From: Calditrichota bacterium | GTDB lineage: Bacteria; Zhuqueibacterota; JdFR-76; BMS3Abin05 | Assembly: GCA_013151735.1 (NCBI GenBank) | Contig: JAADHR010000199.1 | Location: forward strand, 8,178-72,177 | Direction of reading: 5' to 3' | Length of the DNA stretch: 64,000 nucleotides | Shown here: positions 22,992 to 50,073 of the stretch, in pieces | Position numbering within the stretch: position 1 is the first letter of the stretch | How the letters are laid out: every line of letters begins with the position of its first letter | Made by a program: the position numbers and the translations under genes | The notes under the pieces: model-generated | What the model was told of the DNA's origin: nothing | Seen by the model: the letters and a program-made list of their open reading frames with translations, nothing else | Databases searched by the model: none

Positions 22992-23178
22992 AACTGATTA
23001 AAGGGAACAGATTGGTAAGTCGATAATAATTAGGTACCAATTTATCTTTTAATGGAACAATATTTGTAGACATTTATTGCACAGATTCTGATTCACGCCC
23101 AAAGTGATCAGTTTTTACCGGATATTGTTCCCTTGTGAATCATTTTGAAACAGCCAGGGTTTGGCGTGGAGAGTACAG

Positions 23179-24320: not shown

Positions 24321-24815
24321 ATGAAAGATCGATTTAAATTGGTGAAAATTTTTTTCTGGATATTTTTTTTAGGAACACTTGGCGTAACCAGCACCTTCGC
24401 ATCGGTAAAACAAATTTCCGTAACCCCCCTTTCTCCTGAAGCAGGCAAGGCCTCGGTTTATGAGATTGCTTTCAGCTTGACGGAATCCTTCCCCTCAACC
24501 GGACGTGTGGTTTTGGATTTTCCGGCTGATTTTGATTTGTCGCAGGCCATTCTGGCGGGTTCCCCTAATGTGAACGGTGGATTCAAGGTGTTTGTAGAGG
24601 GACAGAAAGTCATTGTGCGCCGAAGCGGCCTGGGTGCAGCGATAGCTGCCGGCCAATCGATTATCCTTCGTGTGGCAAATATTCGGAATCCGAAATCGGC
24701 TGGAACCTACAGTCTATCGTTTCAGGTGTTGGCCGGAAAGAGGGTTCTGGGAGAGGTAAATTCGGTCTCTTTTTCCGTGTTACCCAGGAAAAGGCCATTG
24801 AAACCCGTTCGGTAG
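24321..24815 (+). CDS. small secreted protein, paralog of the N-terminal domain of the downstream giant surface protein
   Basis: Signal peptide. Residues 28-140 align colinearly with residues 24-140 of the 25331 ORF (SV..V..S...AG....Y.V.F......G..VV.F.A.F.L......A.S....GGF...V.G..V...R.G.G......AG......AN..N...AG.Y.L...V). Confidence 0.5.
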   Translation: MKDRFKLVKIFFWIFFLGTLGVTSTFASVKQISVTPLSPEAGKASVYEIAFSLTESFPSTGRVVLDFPADFDLSQAILAGSPNVNGGFKVFVEGQKVIVRRSGLGAAIAAGQSIILRVANIRNPKSAGTYSLSFQVLAGKRVLGEVNSVSFSVLPRKRPLKPVR

Positions 24816-28300: not shown

Positions 28301-31300
28301 TCCATTGGAAGTCTGAGCGATGCGACAGGAACAAGCACGGTCTTTACGGCAACCACAGTCGGTCAGGGAAGCATCACAGCGGACCACGCCACGGCCCTGG
28401 ATGATGCGACGGGAACCCTTACGGTGGTTGAGGGAAATCTGGATCACATTGTCATTCGCGATGCTCCGGGTGGAGCCGGTAATGTGGTTGGAAACGTCAA
28501 TCTGACGGCCGACCAGTCGATTACGCTTTACGCGGCCGGTTACGATGCCGCAGACAATTATCTGGGCGATTACAGTGCAACCTGGTCACTTGCTTCCGGA
28601 AATCTGGCTCCGGTTCCCAGTGGCTCGGCCAGCAGTTTTACCTTCAATCCGACCACAGCCCCTGCTTCCGGGGTCATTCAGGCCAGTTACAATGCCATTA
28701 CGGATGTTACGGGAACGATTTCCGTTTCAGTAGGCGCTCTGGCAAAGGTTCAAATCCGAACGGCAGCGAATGGCGGCGGGGTTGAAGTTACCACGCACAC
28801 CATGACCACGGATGAAACCTTTACCGTGTGGGCGGCCGGTTACGATGCCGACGATAATTTCATTGCGGATACAACGGTCAGCTGGACTTCAACCGGGCTT
28901 ACCCCGGCCCTTTCCTCAAGCGGAAGAAGTGTCACCCTTGATCCCACCGCTCCGGGGACAGCCACCGTAACGGCCACAGAACCCAATTCCGGCCTGACGG
29001 ACAACACAGGAGCCATTGTGATCAATCCGGGAGCCATCACGCACCTTCTGGTAAGGAGCGAAGCCGGCGGGGGCGGAATGGAGGTGGGCGATATGACACT
29101 CACCCTGGACGATAAACTGACCCTCTACGCGGCGGGGTATGATGCCGAGAATAATTACTCGCGGGATGTGGTAGCAACGTGGAGTGTAAGCACCGGTAAT
29201 TTGGATGCTCCCAGTCCTGCAACAGGAACCAGTACGGTTTTTGCCCCCTCGACTCCCGAAACCAGCGGCAAAATTCGGGCGGACAGCACAGGCCTGATCG
29301 GAGACGAAACCGGTACGTTAACAGTGGGCAATGTGTCGTACGTGAAAATTCGGGACGCGGCAAACGGGGCCGGAAGCGAAGTGGGGGATCGAACCCTGAC
29401 GGCCGACGAATCTCTGACCCTTTACGCGGCCGGTTACGATGCCGGGGGGAATTACGTGGGCGATGTGTCGGTCACATGGAGCAGCACGGGTTCGTTAGCC
29501 CCGGCTATCTCGGGGGTAACCGGTACGAGTGTGACATTTTCACCCACAACGGCACCGGCAAGCGGCACAATTTTGGCGGATCACGCGACGGCAACAGACG
29601 ACGTGACCGGTACCATTACCGTCACGCCGGGGGTGCCGGTGGGTACCATTTCCCTTTCTGCTTCACCCACAGCCATTCCGGCGGATGGCAGCAGTACATC
29701 CACCATTACATCCGGTGTCATAAAAGATGCGGACGGCAATCCTGTGGCTCAGGGAACGCTGATTACCGTTAGCACAAGTTTAGGAACCATTATCACGGCA
29801 GACGCCAGTGCGTCCTACACAGGCACCCAGGTAGCTGCGAATGCCAGCGGACAAATTAGCTTCACACTTCAGGCTCCCGCTTCGGGCGGAACGGCCTACA
29901 TTTCGGCTGCCAGTGTGGGCGGAAGTGCCACCGGCAGCACGACCGTGCAGATTACAAATCTTAGAATTGTGAGTATTTCGTCGGATTTTTCATCGGTCAG
30001 TCAGGGTCAAACCAACATTCCCGTACGAATGGTGGTTGAAAATCTGGGGAGTGCGGCCCTGCAAAATGCCACCGCGAACCTCACATTTACCGATGTCGCC
30101 AGTAACGATCGCACGGGTGAGTATTCCGGGATCTCCCAAACCGGGATCTCCGTTGCTGCCGGAGAGACCAAGACCCTGACTTTTTCCGTTTCCGTTGGGG
30201 GCTCGGCGTCACTGGGCTCGATTATTATTGACGGGAATATCAGCGGTACGGTCGACGGAAATTCTGTTGGAACCAGCGGCGCCGGAACGCCCTACAGCTG
30301 GGTGGTACAAACACCAGCCGCTCTGGAAGTGCTTTCCGTTCAAACCACACCGGACAGTGTCAGTCAGGGCCAGCAAGGTATTTCGGTTGTTTTGACGGCC
30401 CGAAATACAGGGCAAGCCGCGGCATCGATTGACTCGATTAAATTATCCTTTAAAATAGGTGCTACAACGGTTACCAGTGAGTACATTCAATCGCAGGCGT
30501 CGGGAAACCCGGTTCAAATTGCGGGGGGCGCAACCGAACAGTTTGAAATGAAAGTGGATGTTTCTGCCTCTGCCACAACCGGAACGGTCAACTTGGATGG
30601 CGCGATTTACGGAAAAGACGCCAATTCATCTGCGGCTGTTGTTGATGTTGGTGCAGCGTCAACCGATTCCTGGGTGGTCACACAGGCAGCCGCCTTTCAA
30701 ATTACGGCTCTGATTCCCTCCCAATACAAAGTGACCTCGGGGCAAACGCGAAGCTGGACCGTCAAAATGGCGGTGGAAAATAATAGCAGTTCCGCTATCG
30801 ATTTGGATTTGGATCCGGCAAAAACCTATCTCAAATTTGTGATTGGGAGTGATGTGACGTCGCAATATTCAATAACCTACCCGACCGCTCTTTTGGGAGG
30901 GGGAATCCGCTTGAATGCCGGGGCAAAAGATACCCTAAAATTTGTAGTGAATATTACCGGAACAACAACAGGAATTGCAGCCATTAATGGAGTTGTGACG
31001 GGAACAGACGTGATTTCCGGCAAGGCCATTACAGACAACACAAATGATACGGGATCAGGGTCGGTTACGGTGCAGACACCGGCATCTGTGAATGTAACGT
31101 CGGTGGTTCCTTCACAGGATTCCGTAAGCAGCGGTCAAACCGCAACATGGAATGTAACGGTGACCGTAGAAAATACCGGACAGAGCGCGGCCACCCTTTC
31201 GCTCGACAGCACACTCCTGAGCTTTCGGAAAGGAACCGGGTACGTCTTTCTCAAGCCGTCTCAATTTCAAGGCGGGGGTCTGGTTCTGAATGGAAATTCT

Positions 31301-34300
31301 TCGGGCACACTGATTTTTTCAATTACAAAAACCACGACTTTTTCCGGAACAGACAGCATTGACGCAACAGTCGGTTTTTTTGAAAATAACAGTGGTCGTT
31401 ACGTTGTGGCCAACACGGCGGCCGGAAATTACGGTACCGTGATTGTGCAGACGCCTGCCGCCTTTTCTATTCTCAGTGTTCACCCGTCGCAGCCAACCGT
31501 TACACAACATCAAACCAACACCTGGACCGCGACAGTTGTGGTTAAGAATACCGGACAAAGCCGGGCTGTAATTGATTTTCAACAGGCGAGCACCTTTTTA
31601 TCATTCTCCAAAAACGGAACCCCCCTTTCTGATTATGCCGTTCAGCAACCCTCTGCTCTGGAAGGAAGTGGTGGAAGTATTCTCTACGGGGGGAAAACGG
31701 ACAGTCTTACATTTGTGATTGCCACCACCGGTGCCGATACGGGGTCAATTACCATTCATGCGACCCTTGCGGGTACCGAGGCGAACAGCGGACGGTCGGT
31801 GAGTACGAATACGTTTGGCGGAAATAGCGGGCTTGTGGAGGTTCAGGCGCCGCCGGTTTTGTCGTACATTGCGGCGTCCTTAAGTCCCAAGAGTGTGAAT
31901 CGCGGGAGCAATGCATCTTTTGAAGTGCGGGTGCGAAATTCGGGAGGGGCCACACTGGTACTGTCTCCCTCGGAAACAAAATTTAGTTTTTCGGACGGTG
32001 TCCATTCCTTTGAAGCCTTTTTGAACGAGAATGTGGTCACCGAAGTTCAGCCGGGTGATACGACCCTGGTTTTTGTGTCCACCCTTGTTCCCGAACTGCT
32101 GGCTACGGGAAACTACACACCTGACATTACGCTCAGCGGAACGCAGAATGGGAATGCATTTCAGGCCAATTTGACGACCGGAACCAATGAGCTGGCCGTT
32201 CTTGAGAAGGCCGTTCTGGATATCGTGTCCATTACTCCTTCCCAAACCCAGGTGACAAGCGGACAGACCCGGCAATGGTATATTTGGATGAATGTGGCCA
32301 ACAACGGGGGCTCGAGCGTCCGCCTCGATAGTACCCAGGTTCATTTGTTCATCGGAACAGAAGTAACGGACGAATATTCCATTACCGTTCCCACCGGTTT
32401 TTGGCAGCAGGACGGCACGGAAAATCCCGTTCTTCAGGGAAATGAGACGGGTACACTGCGTTTTGTGGTAACTCACACCGGGTCTACCACTGGGCCGGCA
32501 ACCATTCAGGGCCGGCTTTGGGTGACCGATCAGGTTAGTCACGACCAGCTCTTTGTTCAAACGGATGGCGGGGCAGGGACGGTTCGCGTGCAGTCGCCGG
32601 CCGAATTAAAAATCAATTACACCATTGTTTCTCAGGCAGCCGTTACCATTGGGCAAACCGAGGATTGGTTTGTAACCCTTAATCTTTCAAATAAAGGCGA
32701 GAGCAGTCTTCGGATTGACACAACCCGGGCGAAGACCTACCTTACTTTTACCATTAACGGGCAACCGGTTCAGGATTTTGTAGTGAAACAACCTACCGAG
32801 CTTTCCAACGGGAGCCTCATTTTACAGGGGGGGGAATCCGCCAGATTGGTTTTTACGATTGATTCAACGACCAGCCGAACGGGATATTGCGTCATTCACG
32901 CACATGTTACGGGGGTGGAAGTCAACTCCGATTCCCTGATTGTGGATGAGAATTATGATTCGGGTTGGAATGGGGTTAATGTGCAGTCAGAGTCCAGTGT
33001 TCAGATTGTGAGTACGGAAAATCTTGCATTTAATGCACCGAACGTGAATACGGGTCAAACATTTAATATTCGTGTCCGTGTCCGAAACAATGGCGGGGAG
33101 GCCATTAAAAATGTAAAGGTGGCTCTTGCGTCTACGGGCCGTTCTATTTTTACGTCGCCGAGAACCATTACCCGGATTAATGCGGGCCTTTCGTATTCTT
33201 TAAACTTTTCGATAAGGGCATCGAGCGATTTTGATTCTACAGAAATATTTACCTCGCGGTTGTTGGAGGCCTATTCGGCAAATACCGGTGACACGATTAC
33301 CGTTGCGCCCGCTGCAGATTCAACCGATACCACAACATTTGCGAAAATCCAAAAACCGGCCGCGCTCGTGATTAGGGAGGTTTATCCCTCACAAGATCGG
33401 GTTTTGGCCAGCCAGACCGACGAATGGCAGGTCTTTGTGGTGGTACAGGATACCGGACAGGCCAATATCCTGCTGAATGATTTTAAAAATACCGACATTG
33501 TCTTTCAGATTAATGGGCAGAACCAGGGAGATTATCTAATTGAAGCCCCGGACTCGCTCCGCGGTGGTGGTCAGGAACTGGTGGGAGGGCAAACGGACAC
33601 ACTGGTTTATCGAATCAAAGCCACCGGCCATTTGGGGGGAACCGCCACCATTTTGGCCACCTTAAACGGCCGGGATGTAAACAGCCTGCACACGCTTTCC
33701 GCGTCCAATAGCACCAGCATCCTGGTCCAAACCTCGGCAGCGATCCAAATTATTAACACAACCATTTCATCCCCTCACGTGGTGGATAATGGAAATGCAG
33801 AAGTCAATCTGAAGCAGCAATTTACGGTAAATGTGTTTGTAGAAAATAAGGGGAACGAACGGGTCGATAGTGTGAAAGTCCGATTGCGAACAAAAGGCCA
33901 TTCACAGTTGCTGGATTCCCTTCGCACAATTCCTACAATTCCGGCCCGATCCATTCGGTTCGCTCAATTCGATGTAATCGCCGATTCGGCAGAAAATCTT
34001 CTGGGGGAAGAGTTCGATTCACGATTGATCAGCGGAAAGGCGTTTGTGAGCCACTTACCGGCCGTTCTTTCCGAAGCCTTGGATTCCGTAGCCGTGGCCC
34101 GGATTGAGAAACCGGCGCAACTGGAGGTTGTGGGAAGTTTAAACGATCAGGACGGTATTTTGTCGGCCAATCAGACCTTTGAGGTTCGGGCCGATGTCGT
34201 AAACAAGGGGCGCTCCGGAACAATTGGTTCCGGGACCATTGCAGTGGAATTGCCTGAAAATTATCGGCTGCTCCGCAATGGCGACACCCTTTCCGTAAGT

Positions 34301-36685
34301 GGGGATACCACAACCTTTTCCGTTGGCACGCGTGTGACGTGGAAAGTGCTGACGCCGCAAGCTACTCAGGGGCCGGACACATTGTTTTTAAAGCTATTAA
34401 CCGCGCCCAAAGATGAAAATACACTAAAAGCCGCAGCGGTTATCCAGGCACAAGATACACTCATTGTAAATACAATTGGAACCAGCCAGATTGCCAGTAG
34501 CGGTGCCGTTGTGAATCCTCCGGGGGCACGGGATGGGGTTGTTTCGACAGAAGAAGAATTTACGGTGGTCACACATATTTCAGCCACGCCCAATCTCACC
34601 CAATTGAAGGGCGAATTGACCATTCCTCAGGGTTACGTGTATTTGTCGCCAAAAATAAAAAGTGTTCAGGGTGATTCTATCGTCTGGACTATTCGTTCGC
34701 CGGAAATTCAGGATCAGGAGACCAAGTATCTTCGCATTACCGCCCGGGGGACGGACGAATCGGGTACGCTGGTGGAAAGCAGTGTGGACAGCATTTCCAT
34801 TCGCGCCGTCAAGCGGGCTAATCTTTCTCTGGATGTTTACATTACCGAACCACAGGGTGCCAAGGACGGCGTGCTGACGGTGGGCCAGCCCTTCATTGTC
34901 CGCGCGCTGGTTACAAACAGCGGACAAGCCGGGGTGTACGGCACGGGGAAGGTCAAAATAATTTTTGGTGCTACAGGTGTTTCCACGAACGAGCCGCTGG
35001 AAAAAGAATTTACGCCGGGTATCCCTGTCGATTGGCGGGTACAGGCGCCCGATACGGTGACAACTGAAGCCCTTATTCGGGTGCAGATCAGCGCTGTTCC
35101 GTATGACGAAAATTCAAACCGGCTTAGCTTTGTTTCGGTGGACAGCAGAAATTTGCGTGTAGAAACCGTCCAATCGGCAAAACTAACGAATACGTTGTCC
35201 ATCTCCAGTCCTGAAGGAGCAAAAGACGGTATTATTTCCACATCTCAGGAATTTCTTGTGGAAGCGGTGGTTCAATCCGAGAATTGTTCCCGGATCACCT
35301 CCGAACTGATTCTTCCGGCGGATTTTTACACAGAGAACCGTGTGAAGAATGCCAACCCCGGTTATTTTGTGGTGTCGTGGCTGGTGCGGGCGCCATCAGA
35401 GCCAAAATCCCCGGTACCGATAAAGGTTATTTCCCGGGCGTATGATGCCAATGATGATACGCTTCGAATCATTAGCCAGCCGGATAGCGTAGAGGTGACC
35501 ACCGTCAGCCGGGCCAATGTGGCGGTGAACGTTTCCATCACCGATCCGCCCGAAGCAGCCAATGGCATTGTTTCCACCCAGGAGGAATTTACGGTTACGG
35601 GTGTTCTTCAAAATCTCGGTCTGGCGAATTTTGAAACAGAGGGGTCGTTGAAAATCATTCTTCCGAAAGGTTTTGTCCTGAAGAGCGACACTATTCAGGA
35701 AACACAGCTCTATCGGGTAAGCTGGCGGGTACAGGCGCCTGAGCAGCCCACACGCTCTCCTCAAAATATTCGGATAGAACTTGTGCAGGCACCGAAGGAT
35801 GAAAACACCAATAAATCGTCCTTTGTTTCGGCGTCCTTTGATGAAATAGCCTTGACCGTGGAAACGAAAAAATTTACGATTTTAAAATGGGGCGATTTTA
35901 ATCAACCCTCGGTCGTGAAAGGCCAAAAAAATATTGCCGTTTTGGGGTTGATCTTAAAAAACCTGGGACTTCCCGGATCGAATGATGTGTGGCTGAGCGG
36001 ACTGCGGATTCAAATCCAAAATCGGAAAGGGAATCTGATTTCCCCCAAAGGCAATTTTGAACGGATTTGGATTGCACCGGCCATGTATCCCGATCAGGTT
36101 CTGGCGGAAAGCCTGAATCCCCAGAATAATCCGGTGGAATTTTCATTTTCCAGTCCGCTGGTTGTAAGAGCCGTCAAAAATGATTCCATTGCCGTTTTTG
36201 TGGATTTGTCACCCAATTCCAAACTGACCGATTTCTTGATTGCGTTTGACGGGGTAAAGGATGTTACGGCAATAGACGGCGTCTCCAAACGTCCCGTCCT
36301 GATTACCGACGCTGCCGGAAATCCGTTGGAAACCCTGAAGGTACAATCCGACTTTACGGTGGTTCTGAATTCAAATTTTGAAAAAACCTTCGGAAATTAT
36401 CCCAATCCTTTTGGAGAGATTGGAAAAGAGACGACCCGGTTTGTCTATTATTTTGACCGGGCCACCGATGGTCAGATTCAGATTTTTACATTAACCGGAG
36501 ATCTGGTCTGGACGAAAGCCATCGAAGCGAATAAACAAACCGGGGCCAAGGGACTTCACGACGGAGACATTGTCTGGGATGGCACCAATTTATCGGGTCT
36601 GAAGGTGGTGAATGGTGTTTATATTGCGGTTCTGACCACGAAGAGCGGGAAAAAGGCATTTACCAAGATTGCTGTTGTTAAATAA
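25331..36685 (+). CDS. giant (3784 aa) repeat-rich cell-surface protein with T9SS-type C-terminal sorting domain
   Basis: Signal peptide. Five ~96-aa repeats (ISPQTAGTAF.ITITAKDA.GN). Eight ~100-aa Big_2-like repeats (IRDAAGG.GSEVG...YAAGYDA.GNY). One Big_1/invasin-like domain. ~20 CARDB-like ~115-aa domains. C-terminal NYPNPF...GVYIAVLTTKSGKKAFTKIAVVK, a Por_Secre_tail-type CTD. Confidence 0.85.
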   Translation: MKRLFAVLNLSVLFLVFSGNVFAQSVDAVTLSTAKAGENAIYTVTFTPSATNFVPNNGKIVVTFDAGFTLNSVTIASSSTMDGGFSISVAGDSVTFTRDGTGTPSAAGAQVDISFANVGNNQIAGSYNLKVTIKQNDDTPIETIGTKSFTITPADLDHFAFGAISPQTAGTNFQITITAQDAYNNTITTANYSLTLIDDTGTLTTIAAGSWLNGVISPTVNITKATASDKITATANGISSTSGSFAVNPAGVSSFEFATIASPQTAGSAFSVTITAKDAYDNVATGFSGSVNLTVNKGDISPASSGIFSSGTKTVSVTINTANTDIQITADDGSGHTGTSNTFNVNPGPVASFAISAISSQAAGEPFTITVTAKDAQGNTATSFAGTVDISDGTNTISPATSGSFSNGLWSGSVTITGTQTGNTITVTNSAGAETGTSNAFDVTASDVAYFTVSTISSPQTAGTAFSITITAKDANGNTAASFTGTASLSDSTGTISPKLTRAFTNGTLTDTVTITQSFTNNQIVVSAVGKSGSSNAFDVNPGALDHFTLDAINSPQTAGTAFDITITAKDAFENTITSYSGTPTISNTTGTISPTTAGAFSNGVRTESVTITKAASSDQITVTDGAVTGSSNTFTVQAGALDHIVIEDAPGGTGAPVGALSKTTDQNVSLFAIGYDANNNYVEDVSVSWSVSGGIGTVSPATGTNTVFNPTTVGSGTVSADDGSGHTDDTGTITVTAGALASLQIRDSAGGAGSVVGNYLMTTDQSLTVYAAGYDADGNYISDQSVTWSSTGLTPSLSGTATSSTFSPTATGSGTITATSGSLSAHTGAITVSAGALAAIKIRDEAGGGGSEVGAVSMTTDDSRTFYAAGYDAEGNYKEDISVTWASTGNLSPAVSSTGTSVTFSPDSANRSGTITADAGSGITDATGTISVSVGALKYVKIVAGATGNGAEYTTGTFSPGDQQTFHAAGYDADGNYIADESVAWSLTGSIGSLSDATGTSTVFTATTVGQGSITADHATALDDATGTLTVVEGNLDHIVIRDAPGGAGNVVGNVNLTADQSITLYAAGYDAADNYLGDYSATWSLASGNLAPVPSGSASSFTFNPTTAPASGVIQASYNAITDVTGTISVSVGALAKVQIRTAANGGGVEVTTHTMTTDETFTVWAAGYDADDNFIADTTVSWTSTGLTPALSSSGRSVTLDPTAPGTATVTATEPNSGLTDNTGAIVINPGAITHLLVRSEAGGGGMEVGDMTLTLDDKLTLYAAGYDAENNYSRDVVATWSVSTGNLDAPSPATGTSTVFAPSTPETSGKIRADSTGLIGDETGTLTVGNVSYVKIRDAANGAGSEVGDRTLTADESLTLYAAGYDAGGNYVGDVSVTWSSTGSLAPAISGVTGTSVTFSPTTAPASGTILADHATATDDVTGTITVTPGVPVGTISLSASPTAIPADGSSTSTITSGVIKDADGNPVAQGTLITVSTSLGTIITADASASYTGTQVAANASGQISFTLQAPASGGTAYISAASVGGSATGSTTVQITNLRIVSISSDFSSVSQGQTNIPVRMVVENLGSAALQNATANLTFTDVASNDRTGEYSGISQTGISVAAGETKTLTFSVSVGGSASLGSIIIDGNISGTVDGNSVGTSGAGTPYSWVVQTPAALEVLSVQTTPDSVSQGQQGISVVLTARNTGQAAASIDSIKLSFKIGATTVTSEYIQSQASGNPVQIAGGATEQFEMKVDVSASATTGTVNLDGAIYGKDANSSAAVVDVGAASTDSWVVTQAAAFQITALIPSQYKVTSGQTRSWTVKMAVENNSSSAIDLDLDPAKTYLKFVIGSDVTSQYSITYPTALLGGGIRLNAGAKDTLKFVVNITGTTTGIAAINGVVTGTDVISGKAITDNTNDTGSGSVTVQTPASVNVTSVVPSQDSVSSGQTATWNVTVTVENTGQSAATLSLDSTLLSFRKGTGYVFLKPSQFQGGGLVLNGNSSGTLIFSITKTTTFSGTDSIDATVGFFENNSGRYVVANTAAGNYGTVIVQTPAAFSILSVHPSQPTVTQHQTNTWTATVVVKNTGQSRAVIDFQQASTFLSFSKNGTPLSDYAVQQPSALEGSGGSILYGGKTDSLTFVIATTGADTGSITIHATLAGTEANSGRSVSTNTFGGNSGLVEVQAPPVLSYIAASLSPKSVNRGSNASFEVRVRNSGGATLVLSPSETKFSFSDGVHSFEAFLNENVVTEVQPGDTTLVFVSTLVPELLATGNYTPDITLSGTQNGNAFQANLTTGTNELAVLEKAVLDIVSITPSQTQVTSGQTRQWYIWMNVANNGGSSVRLDSTQVHLFIGTEVTDEYSITVPTGFWQQDGTENPVLQGNETGTLRFVVTHTGSTTGPATIQGRLWVTDQVSHDQLFVQTDGGAGTVRVQSPAELKINYTIVSQAAVTIGQTEDWFVTLNLSNKGESSLRIDTTRAKTYLTFTINGQPVQDFVVKQPTELSNGSLILQGGESARLVFTIDSTTSRTGYCVIHAHVTGVEVNSDSLIVDENYDSGWNGVNVQSESSVQIVSTENLAFNAPNVNTGQTFNIRVRVRNNGGEAIKNVKVALASTGRSIFTSPRTITRINAGLSYSLNFSIRASSDFDSTEIFTSRLLEAYSANTGDTITVAPAADSTDTTTFAKIQKPAALVIREVYPSQDRVLASQTDEWQVFVVVQDTGQANILLNDFKNTDIVFQINGQNQGDYLIEAPDSLRGGGQELVGGQTDTLVYRIKATGHLGGTATILATLNGRDVNSLHTLSASNSTSILVQTSAAIQIINTTISSPHVVDNGNAEVNLKQQFTVNVFVENKGNERVDSVKVRLRTKGHSQLLDSLRTIPTIPARSIRFAQFDVIADSAENLLGEEFDSRLISGKAFVSHLPAVLSEALDSVAVARIEKPAQLEVVGSLNDQDGILSANQTFEVRADVVNKGRSGTIGSGTIAVELPENYRLLRNGDTLSVSGDTTTFSVGTRVTWKVLTPQATQGPDTLFLKLLTAPKDENTLKAAAVIQAQDTLIVNTIGTSQIASSGAVVNPPGARDGVVSTEEEFTVVTHISATPNLTQLKGELTIPQGYVYLSPKIKSVQGDSIVWTIRSPEIQDQETKYLRITARGTDESGTLVESSVDSISIRAVKRANLSLDVYITEPQGAKDGVLTVGQPFIVRALVTNSGQAGVYGTGKVKIIFGATGVSTNEPLEKEFTPGIPVDWRVQAPDTVTTEALIRVQISAVPYDENSNRLSFVSVDSRNLRVETVQSAKLTNTLSISSPEGAKDGIISTSQEFLVEAVVQSENCSRITSELILPADFYTENRVKNANPGYFVVSWLVRAPSEPKSPVPIKVISRAYDANDDTLRIISQPDSVEVTTVSRANVAVNVSITDPPEAANGIVSTQEEFTVTGVLQNLGLANFETEGSLKIILPKGFVLKSDTIQETQLYRVSWRVQAPEQPTRSPQNIRIELVQAPKDENTNKSSFVSASFDEIALTVETKKFTILKWGDFNQPSVVKGQKNIAVLGLILKNLGLPGSNDVWLSGLRIQIQNRKGNLISPKGNFERIWIAPAMYPDQVLAESLNPQNNPVEFSFSSPLVVRAVKNDSIAVFVDLSPNSKLTDFLIAFDGVKDVTAIDGVSKRPVLITDAAGNPLETLKVQSDFTVVLNSNFEKTFGNYPNPFGEIGKETTRFVYYFDRATDGQIQIFTLTGDLVWTKAIEANKQTGAKGLHDGDIVWDGTNLSGLKVVNGVYIAVLTTKSGKKAFTKIAVVK
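25799..27236 (+). repeat. intragenic tandem repeat block A (5 copies, ~288-nt period)
   Basis: Recurring CAAAC(A/G)GCCGGTAC..TTT.CATTAC.ATTACGGCCAAAGATGCC at roughly 25831, 26118, 26413, 26718 and 27000. Confidence 0.6.
27237..29636 (+). repeat. intragenic tandem repeat block B (8 copies, ~300-nt period, Big_2-like Ig domains)
   Basis: Recurring TACGC(G/C)GCCGGTTACGATGCCGA(C/G)GG.AA.TAC encoding YAAGYDADGNY. Unit starts near 27240, 27545, 27845, 28150, 28440, 28740, 29045 and 29340. Confidence 0.6.
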
Positions 36686-36697
36686 GAAGGTTTTAGA

Positions 36698-38605
36698 ATG
36701 AAGAAAAATTTCACATATTATTTTCTTGGATTGTTTTTTCTAGTGTTGCTCCACCCGGGTTTTGCACAGGATGGAAGCGGCGGTTACGCCAGTATATTCG
36801 CGAACGGAGCAGGCGCCAGACAATTGGGAATGGGGGGAGCAGCGGTCGCTTTTCCACAGGATGCCACCACCATTTTTTGGAACCCGGCAGGAATGGAACA
36901 GCTTCAACGCCAAAGCTTTACCGCCTATTATGCCTCTCTTATGCTTGGGACATCCTACAACTACCTCGGCTATGTGTACCCCACTCTAAATATTGGAACA
37001 TTTGGAATGGGGGTTTCAAGAATTTCGACCGGTGACATTCCCTATCGGGAGAATCACTATGTGGAATTGGGCACATTCGGTTATAATCAGGAAGAATTTT
37101 ATTTTTCTTACGCTAAAAATATCCGTGATTGGTTTGTTGCCGGTGCCAATGTCAAGATCGAACGTCAGGTGATAGGCCAGGATTCCGATATTGGATTTGG
37201 AATTGATGTGGCGGCATTTTATAAACCTGATTTTGCCTCGGAGTGGCTGCAGAATTTACAGGTGGGGGCCATTTATCAGAATGCCTATGCTCCGCGCCTG
37301 CGGTTGCGCCAAAGTGTAGATTACATGCCAAGCCGGCTGCGGTTAGGAGTGGCAAAAACCCTCTATTTTACGAACGATACGTCCCCTTTTGTTGTGCTGA
37401 TGGATCTGGAAAAGGGTGATCAGCTGCCGTTTAAATTCCATTTGGGACTGGAGTACAGCTACAACGGCCAGGCCATGCTTCGGTTGGGACTGAATGACCG
37501 GGGCCTTTCGTTTGGTGCAGGGGCGGTTTACAATCAGTTTGAATTGGATTATTCCTACGGAAGGATCGATTCCAAAGGCGTTTTGGGGGGAAGTCACCGG
37601 ATTTCATTTGTTGTGAATATTGGAAAGAGCCGTTCCGAGAAAATTCAATTAATTGAAGCCCAGCGCCGAAAAGAGCTGGAAGAACAAATTGCCCGGGAAA
37701 ACGAACGCCGCAGGCAGGCACAGATCAGAAAACTCCTGGATGAAGGGAAGTCTCTGTATGCCAATGCCGATTATTTTAAGGCGCTCGTAAAATTCCAGCA
37801 GGTTTTGGAATTGGATAAGAGCAATCCCGAAGCCCTGGAAATGGCGGATGAAACCAAGGCCCGGATGGACGAACTTCGCGAAAAGGAAATGGAGCAGCAG
37901 CTTTCGAAAATCCAGGAAGAACGCCAGCGCAAGCAAATTCAAAGCTATGTGGACAAACATGTGAACAAAGGATTGGAATATCTGAAACAGGGAGATTATG
38001 TTTCCGCCATTGATGAATGGAATTTGGCTTTGGAACGACAACCGGACAGCCAGCAGATCAAGCAGTACATCGAAAGTGCCCAAAATGAACTGCTGACCCG
38101 GATTAACGGTCTTATTTCCAAAGCGGACGAGCTGGCCAAAAAGGGGAATTTCCCTGAGGCCAATAAGCTCTACAATCAGGCCCTGCTGCTCAGCCAGAAC
38201 GATAGCGTCCGCAAGGAAGAAATTCGCAAAAAAATGGCGGAGCTGGAGAAAAAACTCAATATGTACGATTATTACCAATCCGGCCTGATTGCCTATCGTT
38301 CGGAGGACTGGAAAACGGCGATGAAGAATTTTGAGCGGGCCCTGAAACTCAATCCAAAGGATCCGAAAATTCAACGTTATTATAAGGATGCCGAACGACA
38401 CGCCATGGCCCGCAAGCAGCAAATGACGCCGGAAATGGAAAAAAAGTTTAATAAGGCTCTTCAACTCTACGTGGATGATCGAATCGAGGAGGCGTTGAAA
38501 ATCTGGGAGAGTCTGCTGGAAAAACAACCTTACAACAAAGATATAATTGACGCGATTGACATGGCCAAAAAACAACTTCAAGAACGGCAGAAAGCTCGAA
38601 AGTAA
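36698..38605 (+). CDS. PorV/PorQ-like outer-membrane beta-barrel fused to a C-terminal coiled-coil/TPR domain
   Basis: Signal peptide. N-terminal ~310 aa with the PorV/PorQ-family signature (ARQLGMGGAAVAFPQDATTIFWNPAG) and an alternating beta-strand pattern. C-terminal ~300 aa is coiled coil plus TPR. Starts 12 nt after the giant CTD-cargo gene. Confidence 0.55.
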   Translation: MKKNFTYYFLGLFFLVLLHPGFAQDGSGGYASIFANGAGARQLGMGGAAVAFPQDATTIFWNPAGMEQLQRQSFTAYYASLMLGTSYNYLGYVYPTLNIGTFGMGVSRISTGDIPYRENHYVELGTFGYNQEEFYFSYAKNIRDWFVAGANVKIERQVIGQDSDIGFGIDVAAFYKPDFASEWLQNLQVGAIYQNAYAPRLRLRQSVDYMPSRLRLGVAKTLYFTNDTSPFVVLMDLEKGDQLPFKFHLGLEYSYNGQAMLRLGLNDRGLSFGAGAVYNQFELDYSYGRIDSKGVLGGSHRISFVVNIGKSRSEKIQLIEAQRRKELEEQIARENERRRQAQIRKLLDEGKSLYANADYFKALVKFQQVLELDKSNPEALEMADETKARMDELREKEMEQQLSKIQEERQRKQIQSYVDKHVNKGLEYLKQGDYVSAIDEWNLALERQPDSQQIKQYIESAQNELLTRINGLISKADELAKKGNFPEANKLYNQALLLSQNDSVRKEEIRKKMAELEKKLNMYDYYQSGLIAYRSEDWKTAMKNFERALKLNPKDPKIQRYYKDAERHAMARKQQMTPEMEKKFNKALQLYVDDRIEEALKIWESLLEKQPYNKDIIDAIDMAKKQLQERQKARK

Positions 38606-38607: not shown

Positions 38608-41600
38608 GTGTTCAAGAAAATTAAAAAAGAAGAACTTCGGGTTCCGGCCTCCATTGAACACCTGAAGGACCTGAGAAAATTCATCGAGAAAATTGGCAAA
38701 AAACACCGCATTCCGGATAAAATTGTCAATAGCTTCAAATTGGCAATTGATGAAGCCAGTACCAACATCATTCGTCATGCGTACCGGGATTCCTCCGGCG
38801 AAATCCTGCTTCGTGTCATTATCCGAAAAACCAGCGTCACCGTTTCTCTTATCGATCATGGCCGATTTTTTGATCCGAATAATGTGAAGGATCCCGATCT
38901 CAAGCGCTATGTAGCCATCGGAAAGCGGGGCGGGCTGGGTATTTTTATGATTCGGAAGTTGGTCGACGATATTGAATACTACCGTACCGGTGAGGGAAAT
39001 GAACTTCGGTTAACCAAAAAAATTGAAAAAAAGCGCAAAGCAAAAATTAGTGTTCCTTCTATTCCGGGTTCGCTGCGAATAAAATACTATTCCTATTCTG
39101 CAGCGATCCTCTCAACGCTGATTATTTTAGGCTATTTTTATTTTTTCTTCCAGCGAAGTGAGCAAATTCTGGATCAGACATTTGCACAGGGAGAAGCCGC
39201 CGTAAAGGTTCTGGCAAAAAACAGCACCAACTGGATCGGCACGGCAGCGGAGCTCAACCTGAATAAAGAAGTGAAAGTGATTCTTACCCAAAATCCAAAA
39301 CTGTTGACCTATGCCGTAGTTGTGGACAAAAATGGTGTGGTGAAGGGGTCAACCGATTTCGATCTGTTTCGGGTCTTTAAGCCCTATTCGGGTGTTGTGA
39401 CAGAAAAGGTCTTCGGAGAAGAGCGGGCTTTGGTTCGGCTGCCAAATGGCGAAAAAGAATATATGATTAGCAAGCCCATTTACGTAATTGATCATACCGT
39501 TCCAAATTCAAAACGATTTATGGGCAGAGCCTATGTATTTATTTCAAGCAGGCAGGTAAATCATTGGATTCATCAAAAACGCACAGATGATCTGCGTGTA
39601 GCGCTTTTGCTCCTGCTTTTTGGAAATATTGGGGTGGCGCTGTTAATTACGCTGATTATCAGCCCCTTTCGGAAATTGGCAAGCTGGGTGCGAAATGCCA
39701 GTGAGGGCAATATTGAAGATGAGATGGAAATTGATTCCTCGGACGAAATTGGGGAAATTGCTCAGGCGTTTAATGAAATCACGTATAAATTTCGGAAATC
39801 ACAGCAAAGCCTGCAAGATCAGGAACGCCTGAAACATGAAATGCATTTGGCGCAGGAAATTCAACAAACCCTGCTCCCGGCGAAATTTCCAAAAAGACGG
39901 GGATTCGAAATCTCATCTTATTATGAGTCGGCAAAGGAAGTAGGGGGGGACTATTACGATTTTGTGGAGATTGATCCGGATCGTCTGGGGGTGGTTATTG
40001 CCGATGTGTCGGGAAAAGGAGTCCCCGGTTCGCTGGTCATGACGATGATTCGTACGGCTCTGCGCACAGAGGCCAGGGGAACCTATTCGGCAGCTGAAAC
40101 GCTGAGAAAGGTGAATCGATTCATCATGGGGGATATTAAAAAGGGAATGTTTGTGACGGTTTTTTACACCATTCTGAATTCCCGAAACAGAAGTCTGACC
40201 TATGCCAGTGCAGGCCATAACCCCATGATCCTGTATCGTCCCAGCACAAAAAAAACCTACTATTTAAATCCGAGGGGATTTCCGGTTGGGATCAGCCTCA
40301 ATGATGAGGAACTCTTCGACAAGTCGCTGGAAGATGATTCCATCCGGTTGGCAAAGGGGGATATTGTCATCATTTACACCGATGGAGTAACCGAGGCCAT
40401 GAACTCCAGGCGGGAACTCTTTGGGGAAGAGCGTCTGCTGGAAGCTGTTCGCCGGTATGGAAATTTGAGCGCAGAAGAGTTCGTAGCCAAACTTCGGGAA
40501 GAAATTGTCTCCTTCACGGAAGGCCAGATTCAATACGATGACATTTCGCTCGTGGTGATTAAAGAAAACATGGATCAGGAAGAAGAGTACGAGGAACGCG
40601 CCCGTGAGGCCTATTATCAGGTACTCAACGGTGTTTCCGCGACGCAGGCCTGTAAGAATGTGGGCCTTTCCTTCAATACCTTCAAAAAATACAAGGAAAA
40701 ATTTGAAGAGGTCGGGGTTGATAATTTTCGTTCGGACTATGAGGCCACGGCCGTTGAAGCCAAGCACTTAAGTATTGAAGAACAAACGAAGATATTCGAT
40801 ATCATCAAGAAGCATCCGGATTACGGTCCCAGGCGAATTGCGGAATTACTTGCCACCGACACCTATGGCAATATGACTATTTCTGAAAACCGGGTTTACG
40901 GTGAACTGGTTCGCCTGAAGTTGAATACGAAACAGCTTCGCGAAAATTTCGTGGTGCGGAATAAACATAAGCGCAAATTCAAACCTCCCGGAACCCCAAT
41001 GCTTACTCTGGATGGACGGGTTATCATTGATAATGCGCCGGCGAAATTATCGGCTCCCATTCTGAGAGAACCCGAAGAAGAATCCTCTGTTGAGAAAACC
41101 GAAGAATTCAACGGAGAAACACTCTCCGCTGAAATAGAAGAAATTACATCGACGGAAGGATTGGGTCTGGAAGTAGGTGAGGCAGAATCCGCACAGGAGA
41201 AACCGCCGCGTCCAAGGGCGAAAAGGCGGGAAGAAAAGTCCTTAATGGATGAAGATATTGAAGAAATTATTCTTTCAGACCCCGTGGATGTTTTCGATAA
41301 AAATAAGGGAATGGAAACAGAGCCGGAAGAAGAACTTTTGGGGGATGAAAATGATGAAGAAAAAACCGACCTTTCGGAGATCGAGGGAATTGAGGTTTTG
41401 GAACGCACACATGCCCGGGATGTGAGTAATATGGATTCTGACAAAATCGAATCATCAAAAAAGGAAATGGATTTGGATCAGAGAGAGGAAAGCGGCACAT
41501 CTCTAAAAAAATTGTTTGAGTCGCTGAATATGGCGGGTGATGGCGAAGATGTTTCGGAGAGTGAATCCGGAGAAGAAGAGCTCGACCTGCTGCAGTATTC

Positions 41601-42369
41601 CATTTTGGAAGATGGTGACTTGTTGGAGGAAGGCGAATTTTCGGATCAGGGAATGCAAGCAGACAAAACGGAATCGGAACCCGCAACAGGAGAAATCCCG
41701 CCAGCTGAAGAAATCTTCCCGAATGGAAACTCAGAAAAAAGCGACGAGGAACCGGAACCGGAGATTTCCCTGGAGAAAATATTTGGACAATTAAGTGTGC
41801 AGGGTGAAGAGGACGTTGAAGACCGTTCCGTACAAGAAAACTTCAATAGAATTGAAGATTTGGTCGATAATATAATTGTTGAGGAGGAGGAAATTGAGGG
41901 GGTCTTGGAGAGCGAGGATACTGAAAAAATCCAAGAGAAACAGAAAACCATTCCCAAAAAAGAAATAGATGAAGCCTCAAAGGTAAAACGCCTCCTGCTA
42001 ACGGGATTACGGTTCTATCTGGATAAAGATTTTAAAAAGGCCATTGCTGTTTTCAAAAAGATTATCGATGAGTATCCCGATCATTTCGAAGCGCATTACA
42101 ATTTGGGTAATGCCTATTTCAGAATGAAGGATTTTGACAAGGCCGAGCGGGAATACCTGAAGGTGATCGAAATCGATCCGTCATTCACGGATGCCCATGA
42201 AAATTTGGGTGTCATTTATGCCAACCGCAAGGACTTTAAAAAAGCCATTCAAATCTGGAAAAAGATCCTGGAAATCAAGCCGGATCGGAAGGATGTGAAA
42301 AAAAATATTGAAAAGGCCCTAAAATTGAGTAAAAGTCAAAAACATAAAGAAACCACAACAACTGAATGA
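38608..42369 (+). CDS. multidomain signalling protein: RsbW-like GHKL Ser kinase + TM + periplasmic sensor + TM + HAMP + SpoIIE/PP2C phosphatase + transposase-like HTH fragment + acidic linker + TPR
   Basis: GTG start 2 nt after the upstream stop. N-terminus SFKLAIDEASTNIIRHAY (anti-sigma kinase HATPase). TM helices near aa 160-185 and 330-355. HAMP. PP2C motifs DYYDF, IADVSGKGVPGS, IYTDGVTEA. Acidic low-complexity region aa ~820-1110. C-terminal TPRs. Confidence 0.75.
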   Translation: MFKKIKKEELRVPASIEHLKDLRKFIEKIGKKHRIPDKIVNSFKLAIDEASTNIIRHAYRDSSGEILLRVIIRKTSVTVSLIDHGRFFDPNNVKDPDLKRYVAIGKRGGLGIFMIRKLVDDIEYYRTGEGNELRLTKKIEKKRKAKISVPSIPGSLRIKYYSYSAAILSTLIILGYFYFFFQRSEQILDQTFAQGEAAVKVLAKNSTNWIGTAAELNLNKEVKVILTQNPKLLTYAVVVDKNGVVKGSTDFDLFRVFKPYSGVVTEKVFGEERALVRLPNGEKEYMISKPIYVIDHTVPNSKRFMGRAYVFISSRQVNHWIHQKRTDDLRVALLLLLFGNIGVALLITLIISPFRKLASWVRNASEGNIEDEMEIDSSDEIGEIAQAFNEITYKFRKSQQSLQDQERLKHEMHLAQEIQQTLLPAKFPKRRGFEISSYYESAKEVGGDYYDFVEIDPDRLGVVIADVSGKGVPGSLVMTMIRTALRTEARGTYSAAETLRKVNRFIMGDIKKGMFVTVFYTILNSRNRSLTYASAGHNPMILYRPSTKKTYYLNPRGFPVGISLNDEELFDKSLEDDSIRLAKGDIVIIYTDGVTEAMNSRRELFGEERLLEAVRRYGNLSAEEFVAKLREEIVSFTEGQIQYDDISLVVIKENMDQEEEYEERAREAYYQVLNGVSATQACKNVGLSFNTFKKYKEKFEEVGVDNFRSDYEATAVEAKHLSIEEQTKIFDIIKKHPDYGPRRIAELLATDTYGNMTISENRVYGELVRLKLNTKQLRENFVVRNKHKRKFKPPGTPMLTLDGRVIIDNAPAKLSAPILREPEEESSVEKTEEFNGETLSAEIEEITSTEGLGLEVGEAESAQEKPPRPRAKRREEKSLMDEDIEEIILSDPVDVFDKNKGMETEPEEELLGDENDEEKTDLSEIEGIEVLERTHARDVSNMDSDKIESSKKEMDLDQREESGTSLKKLFESLNMAGDGEDVSESESGEEELDLLQYSILEDGDLLEEGEFSDQGMQADKTESEPATGEIPPAEEIFPNGNSEKSDEEPEPEISLEKIFGQLSVQGEEDVEDRSVQENFNRIEDLVDNIIVEEEEIEGVLESEDTEKIQEKQKTIPKKEIDEASKVKRLLLTGLRFYLDKDFKKAIAVFKKIIDEYPDHFEAHYNLGNAYFRMKDFDKAEREYLKVIEIDPSFTDAHENLGVIYANRKDFKKAIQIWKKILEIKPDRKDVKKNIEKALKLSKSQKHKETTTTE

Positions 42370-42444: not shown

Positions 42445-43131
42445 ATGGAAGGAATCCAGGTATCGGTATCCAAAACAGGCCCTCAAAACAGCGTATCCGT
42501 TATAAAAGTAGGGGGCTATATTGATACAACGACTTCTGCTGAATTAGAACGTGCTCTCGATCACCTATTGCGGGCGGGGAATTACAATATCGTGGTTGAC
42601 CTGGGTAATGTGGACTACATCAGTAGTGCCGGCTGGGGTATTTTTATCAGTGAAATCAAGGGCATTCGGGAGAAAAACGGAGACCTCAAACTGGCAAATA
42701 TGATTCCGGATGTTTATGAAGTTTTTGAACTTTTGGAGTTTCACTATATTCTAAAAGCATTTGATTCCATTGAAGAAGCCGTTCGTGACTTTAACAAAGA
42801 TTCCCTGGGAAAAAGCGTTGCTGAATTTCAAGCAGATTCATCGACAAATGAATCCCTGCCGGAAGAAAGTCAGGCACAAATCCCCAATGAGGGCGTTTCC
42901 GATATTTCATCGGCTCAGACGACGGTTTCAAAAAAGAGCCTTCAGGAGAAAATTCGCCAGGCGGTTATGGACAAGCCGGATGCCAGTCTTCTGGAAATAA
43001 AAAATGATTTAAATACTGAAAAATATGGTTTTACCAAAATCGGAATGTTCCGTCTCTGGAAGGAATTGGGGAAGTTGGGTCTGGGTTCAAAGAAAAAAAG
43101 AATCGCCTTTTTCAAAAAGCATGCATTTTAG
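42445..43131 (+). CDS. STAS-domain anti-sigma-factor antagonist (RsbV/SpoIIAA-like) with ~110-aa C-terminal extension
   Basis: N-terminal 115 aa has STAS fold hallmarks (VIKVGGYIDTTTSAELERAL...DLGNVDYISSAGWGIF; phosphorylatable Ser context DYISSAG). C-terminal region is Ser/Glu-rich, then a basic helical segment. Confidence 0.75.
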   Translation: MEGIQVSVSKTGPQNSVSVIKVGGYIDTTTSAELERALDHLLRAGNYNIVVDLGNVDYISSAGWGIFISEIKGIREKNGDLKLANMIPDVYEVFELLEFHYILKAFDSIEEAVRDFNKDSLGKSVAEFQADSSTNESLPEESQAQIPNEGVSDISSAQTTVSKKSLQEKIRQAVMDKPDASLLEIKNDLNTEKYGFTKIGMFRLWKELGKLGLGSKKKRIAFFKKHAF

Positions 43132-47584: not shown

Positions 47585-47668
47585 GGAGGGCTAGTCCTAA
47601 TTGGTAAGGCGGCGGTCTTGAAAACCGCTGGGCGTTTGCCCTTGGGGGTTCGAGTCCCTCGCCCTCCG
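47585..47668 (+). tRNA. tRNA-Ser (anticodon TGA)
   Basis: Manual cloverleaf: acceptor GGAGGGC/GCCCTCC. Anticodon stem GCGGT/ACCGC with loop CTTGAAA. Long variable arm (GGGC-GTTT-GCCC). T-loop TTCGAGT. Confidence 0.75.
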
Positions 47669-47717
47669 CAAAGGACAAGGAAGAGAGAGACGTTATTTGA
47701 CATAAAATTGCCTGAGA

Positions 47718-47804
47718 GGAGAGGTGGCCGAGCTGGCTTAAGGCGGCGGTCTCGAAAACCGCTTCACGCTTGTCGTGACGGGGGTTCGAATCCCTCCCTC
47801 TCCG
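47718..47804 (+). tRNA. tRNA-Ser (anticodon CGA)
   Basis: Acceptor GGAGAGG/CCTCTCC. Anticodon loop CTCGAAA. Long variable arm. T-loop TTCGAAT. Confidence 0.75.
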
Positions 47805-50070: not shown

Positions 50071-50073
50071 TTT

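Follow-up and report, generated by a model that had tools for sequence, protein, structure and literature searches.

How surface proteins anchored by a type IX secretion system (T9SS) communicate with the cell interior is a largely open question, and the locus described here raises it together with a second one: how outer-membrane barrels such as SprF or PorQ connect to anything in the periplasm. The locus lies within a 64,000-nucleotide (nt) stretch of contig JAADHR010000199.1 (hereafter the window), where a single gene encodes a PorV/PorQ-family beta-barrel followed by a long arm of tetratricopeptide repeats (TPRs), between the gene of a giant protein with a T9SS C-terminal sorting domain (CTD) and that of an inner-membrane partner-switching sensor. 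The barrel superfamily is clearly already known, its members carrying the PorV/PorQ family label in databases; new here are the joining of barrel and TPR arm on a single polypeptide and the fixed association of this barrel–TPR protein with a partner-switching sensor. It is proposed to be a specialised outer-membrane partner, in effect a dedicated PorQ-like anchor or shuttle, of the giant protein encoded upstream, with a TPR arm that would couple it to an inner-membrane partner; for this reading as a whole we consider the balance of probability to be even.

The barrel and its helical arm

The barrel–TPR gene is real, since its homologues cover the full length of the encoded protein, aligning end to end at identities from 95% down to about 23%. 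A Sec signal peptide that lacks a lipobox cysteine forms the N-terminus, MKKNFTYYFLGLFFLVLLHPGFA/QD. A preliminary description, made from the sequence alone, had divided the protein into a PorV/PorQ-like barrel and a coiled-coil/TPR part of some 300 C-terminal amino acids (aa), and both parts were recovered within the bounds then drawn. The PorV/PorQ family model NF033709 of NCBIfam matches aa 37–307 with 137.5 bits against a cut-off of 90 (profile positions 10–325 of 326), and is matched by all 52 aligned relatives (E <= 1e-5). An AlphaFold2 model built on the 52-sequence alignment, with a mean predicted local distance difference test score (pLDDT) of 87.2, places a plug of short helices at residues 33–68, 14 main strands at 72–308 and solely helices at 312–634, and thus predicts the 14-stranded FadL-type barrel with N-terminal plug of the PorV/PorQ family; strands 3 (101–117) and 4 (123–143) are the longest in the model, and unusually so. 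Within the plug, D55 and W61-N62-P63-A64-G65 are near-invariant across the 52-sequence alignment, the WNPAG motif being the counterpart of the NPA motif in the hatch of FadL-family proteins.

Comparison of the model with the PDB by Foldseek placed a T9SS family ahead of all others, in agreement with the initial assignment: the top matches were PorV chains of the Flavobacterium johnsoniae translocon, 8gl6_F (E 6.7e-12; template-modelling (TM) score on the target 0.62) and 6h3i_F (E 6.0e-11; 0.68), followed by FadL, TodX and CymD at E 3e-8 to 1e-5 and TM-scores of 0.42–0.52, with generic TPR proteins matched by the helical half. PorV was also the sole barrel found, at E 9e-28, when a sequence profile of the 52-sequence alignment was compared with all PDB sequences. 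Among Pfam families, PorV (PF19572) falls just under its threshold for the window protein (24.7 against 27), and neither UPF0164 (PF03687, at E <= 0.01) nor the FadL/TodX family Toluene_X (PF03349) matches it. Of the 52 aligned members, 18 match UPF0164 (best E 1.6e-8), nine match PorV and three match Toluene_X, so that the barrel lies between these families in sequence space. The idea that the 14-stranded plugged barrel could be the giant protein's own translocon was set aside as unlikely, by inference from pore size.

In the model, the arm begins with a 44-residue stalk helix leaving the last barrel strand and continues as five TPR hairpins, placed by eye and by conservation at about residues 345–378, 418–451, 472–505, 522–555 and 582–615, each leading via a connector helix into the next. 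Membership of the TPR superfamily is supported by the helix pairs of the model and by Pfam scores of 65.2 bits for TPR_2 (cut-off 27), 38.1 for TPR_1 (27.8) and 45.6 for TPR_14 (23.5), with TPR_1/TPR_2 matches at 421–450 and 525–555; against consensus TPR proteins in the PDB, profile E-values reach down to 1e-74. The arm is homologous end to end in 22 loci. Conservation, measured in bits per column over 45 relatives of less than 60% identity, is highest in the plug (2.78), followed by the distal TPR5 (2.19, the best conserved unit of the arm), the barrel (2.08), TPR1–TPR4 (1.8–2.0) and the connector helices (1.4–1.6). Because the number of strands is even and the N-terminal plug enters from the periplasmic side, the arm would lie in the periplasm, an argument that follows from the established topology of outer-membrane proteins; the identity of the barrel and the periplasmic position of the arm are proposed with high confidence. 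Within the TPR-coding half of the gene, a 310-aa antisense open reading frame (ORF; 37649..38581, minus strand) is most likely an artefact of the lysine/glutamate-rich coding strand.

The preliminary description had set this fusion against the stand-alone PorV barrels that are typical of the family; the fusion is genuine, and the search for other PorV–TPR fusions has found it not to be rare. A word-indexed search returned about 50 full-length relatives of 600–700 aa, from bacterium BMS3Abin05 (79% identity), Calditrichia, Latescibacteria DG_63, 'Bacteroidetes' metagenome-assembled genomes (MAGs) and Elusimicrobiota, currently labelled 'PorV/PorQ family protein' or 'tetratricopeptide repeat protein'. 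An exhaustive profile search over 1.84 billion cluster representatives (50% identity clusters) gave at least 150 matches at E <= 2e-117, with at least 120 clusters matched end to end in a single stretch of 600–700 aa and having the full barrel–TPR architecture; a few versions of 1160–1280 aa with longer TPR arrays were seen among the matches listed. As judged from these matches, the barrel–TPR fusion is a large, unnamed subfamily rather than a one-off.

Other C-terminal tails are found on PorV-like barrels: OmpA domains occupy the position of the arm in P0080, L051 (9875–11506) and L068 (8838–10676), those of P0080 and L051 with a TSP_3 repeat ahead of them, while an SH3 tail occurs in P0055 and a FlgT_C tail in L022 (1356–2696); in L051 the OmpA-tailed barrel comes after a CTD protein that exceeds 3257 aa. 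Since OmpA, SH3 and FlgT_C are found at the same position, the equipping of PorV-like barrels with a periplasmic adaptor or tether is a recurring design, of which the TPR arm is one version. Ordinary stand-alone PorV/PorQ proteins of 350–370 aa occur in Calditrichaeota and in other lineages of the Fibrobacteres–Chlorobi–Bacteroidetes (FCB) group. No description of the barrel–TPR family, or of the gene module described below, was found in the literature on PorV-like and PorQ-like fusions or on T9SS and partner switching.

Neighbouring genes and their conserved order

The gene immediately upstream encodes the putative cargo, a designation from the preliminary description that is supported: behind its signal peptide (MKRLFAVLNLSVLFLVFSGNVFA/QS) the giant protein carries Ig-like repeats, and it ends in a T9SS type A sorting domain that scores 23.8 bits against TIGR04183 (cut-off 23). 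An alignment of 15 such CTDs identifies the domain as common to the giant proteins upstream of barrel–TPR genes in 14 other loci, with the shared pattern NYPNPF ... IYTL.G.LV ... WDG.N..G..V.NGVY ... K.AV.K; all ten relatives' giant proteins that were scanned match T9SS CTD models, seven of them reaching the TIGR04183 cut-off. A scan of the other ORFs of the window for the same CTD found none, the giant protein alone having it. In NCBIfam, the top-scoring entries for giant-protein CTDs (of L003, L004, L013 and others) are often the PorZ and PorU models, matched at their C-terminal ends, a preference that is a hint only, as longer models gather more bits; PorZ and PorU are the two T9SS proteins that keep their CTD, bound to PorQ and PorV (reviewed in PMC10202324).

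Gene order was analysed by ORF calling and phmmer over 100 fetched loci, including a genome-contig scan keyed on the WNPAG barrel motif (80 loci, 12 of them fusions; because of that query, most held stand-alone PorV-like barrels) and a scan of metagenomes with a six-sequence TPR-only alignment (11 loci, L090–L100). Wherever flanks are visible, the order is giant CTD protein, barrel–TPR protein, membrane protein with RsbW-kinase, HAMP and PP2C domains, and STAS protein, with exceptions in the third gene. The complete four-gene order is present in L001–L006, L009–L014, L016 and all 11 metagenome loci, making at least 23 independent loci, for the most part from the FCB group (Calditrichia, Ignavibacteria, Latescibacteria), with identities reaching down to about 25%. 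A CTD-bearing giant protein is encoded immediately upstream of the barrel–TPR gene in every related locus with a visible flank; in the gene calls around homologues it measures 1970–3800 aa, its gene ending between 7 nt inside and 15 nt before the barrel–TPR start in most loci (exceptions: 124 nt in L003 and 287 nt in L007). Translational coupling had been read from the 12-nt spacing of the window; tight operon linkage is borne out by these distances, but a gap of this size is by itself no proof of coupling.

The sensor ORF begins 2 nt after the barrel–TPR stop codon. Its product is predicted to carry an RsbW-like serine kinase and a PP2C/SpoIIE phosphatase on either side of two transmembrane helices that enclose a periplasmic domain, a region conserved together with the flanking transmembrane and HAMP segments in most orthologues and a putative point of contact with the TPR arm or the giant protein's CTD. 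The STAS protein consists of a STAS domain (15–112) followed by a tail of about 115 aa; its gene is kept after the sensor gene in relatives, and it is presumed to be the substrate of the sensor's kinase and phosphatase. No sigma factor gene was found near the sensor/STAS pair. A tether from the barrel to the downstream sensor had been raised as a possibility in the preliminary description, and the gene order in at least 23 loci suggests such a tie.

In loci that lack the PP2C sensor, an inner-membrane protein with a periplasmic domain of 150–190 aa is still encoded next. In L019 (6787–13264, uncultured bacterium), a 1031-aa Por_Secre_tail protein and a 596-aa barrel–TPR protein are followed by a 518-aa protein with transmembrane, HAMP and adenylate/guanylate cyclase segments; by its domain assignments this is the architecture of the window, with a nucleotide-cyclase output in place of the PP2C/kinase and STAS proteins. 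In four Elusimicrobiota loci (L007:2994–20062, L015:1965–12501, L023:9860–15355 and L041:9902–15768), the next gene encodes a FliF/FliG-like protein that comprises a signal peptide, some 170 residues in the periplasm, one transmembrane helix, FliG_M, FliG_C and TPRs, after which comes a large protein (591–1655 aa) without a Pfam match; MotA and MotB genes lie further downstream in L007 and L015, the two loci with that stretch annotated, preceded by FlbD in L007. No further flagellar genes were seen among the annotated genes of these flanks, and the Elusimicrobiota variant may be a stator-driven machine of a non-flagellar kind to which a giant surface protein is attached.

Stand-alone PorV-like barrels likewise occur right behind CTD proteins (L017, L021, L022, L035, L036, L053, L054, L063 and L087). 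Others of about 350 aa, from Bacteroidetes and Kryptoniota MAGs, have downstream of them the genes for a PP2C sensor, a STAS protein, an RsbW-like kinase and another PP2C (L066:9968–16557, L069:4222–10810 and L076:9890–16465), and a STAS gene lies directly 3' of a stand-alone barrel in L056, L067 and L074; because of this adjacency, the link between PorV-like barrels and partner switching reaches beyond the fusion family.

Proposed coupling and competing explanations

In the proposed mechanism, the barrel would bind the type A CTD of the giant Ig-repeat protein after its passage across the outer membrane and hold the protein on the cell surface, in the manner of PorQ–PorZ, PorV–PorU and SprF–SprB. 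The stalk helix and the five TPR hairpins would hang into the periplasm as a protein-binding arm, the most likely partner of which would be the periplasmic domain, of about 150 aa, of the next-encoded inner-membrane protein. The sensor kinase/phosphatase would set the phosphorylation state of the STAS protein, and a cytoplasmic partner-switching output would thereby be coupled across the envelope, whichever way the signal runs, to whether the surface fibre is present, loaded, pulled or lost. A functional pairing of the barrel–TPR protein with the giant protein is probable, and binding of the CTD by the barrel, or its docking on SprA/Sov or the attachment complex, is putative; a direct coupling of arm and sensor, for which synteny is the evidence, is proposed tentatively, its chances lying at or slightly below the even mark.

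Anchoring of this kind has been proposed for cognate PorV-like barrels, which would shield and retain uncleaved CTDs in the pairs PorZ/PorQ and type B CTD/PorP–SprF (PMC10202324), and PorP-like barrels anchor type B CTD proteins or giant adhesins such as SprB, often paired with the TPR/OmpA tether PorE (PMC9143113). With PorV (F. johnsoniae Fjoh_1555; PDB 6H3I and 8GL6 chain F) and PorQ, the barrel–TPR protein has in common the 14-stranded FadL-type barrel, the N-terminal plug and the NF033709 match, and, as in PorQ–PorZ and PorV–PorU, it is paired with a protein bearing a type A-like CTD; unlike them, it carries a predicted periplasmic TPR arm of 325 aa, scores far below their equivalog cut-offs, and has as operon neighbours a single giant cargo gene and the signalling pair, not T9SS core genes. 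The SprB–SprF and PorP–PG1035–PorE systems follow the same logic of a giant adhesin gene followed by that of its own FadL-type anchoring barrel, but SprF and PorP belong to another barrel subfamily (the PorP model is matched by three of the 52 barrel–TPR members), their partners have type B CTDs in place of the type A CTD of the giant protein, and PorE is a separate lipoprotein, whereas here the TPR part is fused to the barrel and lacks the OmpA domain that sister barrels have. Treponema pallidum TP0548, TP0859 and TP0865 (UPF0164) likewise combine a 14-stranded barrel of the FadL type with an alpha-helical TPR domain behind it that is presumed to be periplasmic, a tail reported to have no counterpart in other FadL members in Pfam (PMC8407342); compared by description, the Treponema tails are a single short three-helix bundle, as against five TPR units here, and the Treponema proteins involve neither CTD cargo nor T9SS and are proposed to function in transport.

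On the signalling side, an inner-membrane sensor can have a CTD as its ligand in the periplasm, as PorY has that of PorA (PMC12152298). Transmission across the envelope by an outer-membrane barrel with a periplasmic extension, which signals to an inner-membrane protein with a periplasmic domain, is known from FecA–FecR–FecI, and in LapA–LapG–LapD a HAMP-containing inner-membrane protein controls whether a giant adhesin is kept in its outer-membrane pore. Neither the Fec nor the Lap system is homologous to the window module, in which the barrel is neither TonB-dependent nor TolC-like and the output is a partner-switching kinase/phosphatase, as opposed to an anti-sigma factor (Fec) or a cyclic di-GMP receptor (Lap). 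SypE of Vibrio fischeri is a cytoplasmic protein with a central receiver domain, whereas the centre of the window sensor is predicted to consist of a transmembrane helix, the periplasmic domain, a second transmembrane helix and HAMP, with the helix-turn-helix (HTH)-like region, acidic stretch and TPRs following the phosphatase. SypE (PMC10120452) and the window sensor are nevertheless alike in uniting an RsbW-like kinase and a PP2C on one polypeptide; SypE acts on a single-domain STAS protein, SypA, to control a surface or biofilm trait rather than a classical sigma factor, and the window sensor is presumed to act on the STAS protein encoded next.

Several observations weigh against the proposed mechanism. 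The conserved residues of the arm are mostly canonical structural TPR positions, with no specific binding surface evident, and the sensor's periplasmic domain is not uniform among relatives, being an sCache_3_2 domain in L009 and not alignable in L013. No T9SS core genes (SprA/Sov, PorK/L/M/N or PorU) are present among the annotated genes of the window, and we know of no T9SS in Elusimicrobiota, which hold members of the family. The equivalog models of the characterised barrels score far under their cut-offs, with 60.9 bits for PorV (NF033710; cut-off 250), 74.6 for PorQ (NF033711; 220) and 74.1 for PorV2 (NF052325; 325), so that the barrel–TPR protein is neither a characterised PorV nor a characterised PorQ.

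The same scores bear on the suggestion that it is the organism's general PorV, a shuttle for all type A CTD substrates whose arm merely steadies docking on the translocon. Such a role would be in keeping with the top rank of SprA-complexed PorV in the structural and sequence comparisons with solved structures, and with the PorV-like length of strands 3 and 4; the deep shortfall at the PorV equivalog, PorQ and PorV2 model scores slightly above that of PorV, the strict tie to one giant gene in every locus and the existence of stand-alone PorV/PorQ proteins in Calditrichaeota and other FCB lineages make it quite improbable. An importer of hydrophobic small molecules, in which the arm would pass substrate to a periplasmic carrier, is compatible with the FadL-type fold and NPA-containing plug, with the UPF0164 and Toluene_X matches of 18 and three of the 52 members, and with the helical, TPR-bearing periplasmic tail of three of the five T. 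pallidum FadL-like proteins (PMC8407342), but PorV outranks FadL in both structure and sequence searches, the window protein itself has no UPF0164 match at E 0.01, and an invariant pairing with a CTD-bearing giant protein does not fit a transporter, so that this function is very unlikely. Foldseek also returned the FadL-like subunits of the Bacteroidota beta-barrel assembly machinery (BAM; 9n2d_B, 9hjm_F and 9hiv_F) and BamD (3qky), and the TPRs of some members match BamD and BepA models, as would be expected of a structural envelope tether or an accessory of outer-membrane biogenesis (e.g. a FadL-like BAM subunit with a BamD-like TPR part) that adjoins the giant gene incidentally; with structural matches five to seven orders of magnitude weaker than those of PorV, and with a cross-phylum synteny with giant gene and sensor that is unexpected for a housekeeping BAM subunit, this explanation is extremely improbable.

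Closer to the preferred mechanism is the possibility that the barrel–TPR protein anchors or chaperones the giant protein without a signalling role, the sensor reading periplasmically accumulated CTD directly as a form of secretion feedback and the arm serving as a dock, chaperone or link to the translocon. Precedents for both halves exist, in the binding of the PorA CTD to the inner-membrane sensor PorY in the periplasm, which activates PorXY–SigP (PMC12152298), and in SprE/PorW, a TPR lipoprotein forming a periplasmic extension of the translocon (PMC10994853), and the gene order fits equally well. Left unexplained, however, are the adjacency of arm and inner-membrane partner in loci where the output is a cyclase or FliG/MotAB, and the cell-wall-binding OmpA domain at the same position of sister barrels, and we regard CTD reading as unlikely. 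A wider version of coupling through the arm would make the barrel–TPR protein the outer-membrane end of a hitherto unrecognised trans-envelope relay, in which the giant fibre in the grip of the barrel is linked, mechanically or conformationally, to exchangeable inner-membrane modules: the partner-switching kinase/phosphatase, the nucleotide cyclase, or the Elusimicrobiota FliF/FliG-like rotor protein with MotAB stators. This generalisation is somewhat doubtful; if true, it would define a new class of surface-contact sensing device and, in its motor variant, a non-flagellar, stator-driven surface machine built on T9SS-type cargo–anchor pairs.

Genomic setting and wider meaning

The module and the other features located in the window are collected in the table. 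Scans for promoters and terminators around the module gave no signal above background, and Rfam and tRNA scans of the window detected tRNAs and the signal recognition particle (SRP) RNA only, unconnected with the module.

Table. Features of the barrel–TPR locus and of the window (positions in nt of the window; residues in aa of the respective protein; TM, transmembrane)
Feature	Position	Strand	Details and basis
TPR protein	23161..24306	+	381 aa; no signal peptide seen; Pfam TPR_11/TPR_1/TPR_2
Small secreted protein	24321..24815	+	164 aa; no Pfam match; paralogue of the giant protein's N-terminal domain
Giant surface protein	25331..36685	+	3784 aa (11.35 kb); Pfam Invasin_D3, CARDB; TIGR04183
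Giant-protein CTD, aa 3690–3784	36398..36682	+	NYPNPF ... WDG.N..G..V.NGVY ... TKIAVVK
Spacer, giant stop codon to barrel–TPR ATG	36686..36697	+	12 nt, GAAGGTTTTAGA; no terminator-like site
Barrel–TPR gene	36698..38605	+	ATG start; 635 aa
Sec signal peptide, aa 1–23	36698..36766	+	...HPGFA/QD; translation; model helix 2–17, low pLDDT 23–26
N-terminal plug (hatch), aa 27–70	36776..36907	+	short model helices ahead of strand 1
14-stranded PorV/PorQ-family beta-barrel, aa 71–308	36908..37621	+	NF033709, AlphaFold2, Foldseek, PDB profile
All-helical arm, aa 311–635	37628..38602	+	model helices, Pfam TPR matches
Inner-membrane partner-switching sensor	38608..42369	+	1253 aa; GTG start; Pfam, NCBIfam, hydropathy
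Sensor RsbW-like serine kinase, aa 12–137			cytoplasm
Sensor TM helix, aa 163–181			hydropathy
Sensor periplasmic domain, aa 182–332	39151..39603	+	between two predicted TM helices
Sensor TM helix, aa 333–351			hydropathy
Sensor HAMP, aa 346–390			cytoplasm
Sensor PP2C/SpoIIE phosphatase, aa 457–652			cytoplasm
Sensor cytoplasmic tail, aa 671–1253	40618–42369		
Sensor HTH_32/IS481-transposase-like HTH region, aa 671–779			cytoplasm
Sensor acidic region, about aa 800–1110			cytoplasm; ~300 aa, highly acidic, probably disordered
Sensor TPRs, about aa 1120–1240			cytoplasm
STAS anti-sigma-factor antagonist	42445..43131	+	228 aa; Pfam STAS 62 bits, TIGR00377 61.6 bits
Nine tRNA genes, clustered	47585–50842		tRNA scan
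SRP RNA	50888–50987		Rfam scan

Two genes upstream of the giant gene may belong to the same unit. The 381-aa TPR protein has a same-position orthologue in L004 (E 1e-67) and in L092, the gene not being seen in L093, and the 164-aa protein matches aa 27–153 of the giant protein (E 3e-18), with a small gene of this type preceding the giant gene in L004, L092 and L093. Because both genes recur upstream, the module may comprise six genes, the 381-aa TPR gene being a possible first gene of this extended form.

The host was placed through GyrB, with annotation confined to the genes of the window. GyrB is 87% identical to that of bacterium BMS3Abin05, which is unclassified in the NCBI listing, and 72–77% identical to those of candidate division KSB1 and Calditrichaeota, placing the host in the FCB group near the latter two. 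A T9SS has been reported for the FCB group in a review (PMC12398890), and from the CTD of the giant protein and the FCB placement by GyrB, the system would be expected in the host genome. The presence of recF, gyrB and gyrA at the start of the window suggests a location just after the replication origin; its annotated genes are all on the plus strand, and the remaining ones are otherwise housekeeping.

Some further features of the window are recorded for completeness. A small cluster resembling type IV pilus or pseudopilus genes at 16708–19671 encodes a 216-aa protein with a prepilin-like N-terminus (G/SIVYE, then a hydrophobic helix), a PilM_2-like protein (17491–18453) and a 372-aa protein with one transmembrane helix and no Pfam match. 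Directly 3' of gyrA, a 257-aa FecR-domain protein is encoded at 6273–7046, with no adjoining extracytoplasmic function (ECF) sigma factor or TonB-dependent receptor among its annotated neighbours. At 62882–63628 lies a gene of the PcrB family (prenylglyceryl-phosphate synthase-like), and at 53780–54421 one for a CDP-alcohol phosphatidyltransferase; PcrB homologues of FCB-group bacteria have been discussed in the context of ether lipids.

The family defined here is large and so far carries generic labels only, and it broadens the observation of a helical TPR tail on the FadL-like proteins of T. pallidum (PMC8407342). The combination of a conserved module with exchangeable inner-membrane partners is likely to come as a moderate surprise to the T9SS specialist. 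In many uncultured lineages of the FCB group, the barrel–TPR gene has a fixed place between those of a giant CTD protein and of an inner-membrane transducer, and this arrangement provides a testable model for how a T9SS-anchored surface protein might communicate with the cell interior, in which the barrel would bind the CTD, the arm would bind the periplasmic domain of the sensor, and phosphorylation of the STAS protein would serve as the read-out.

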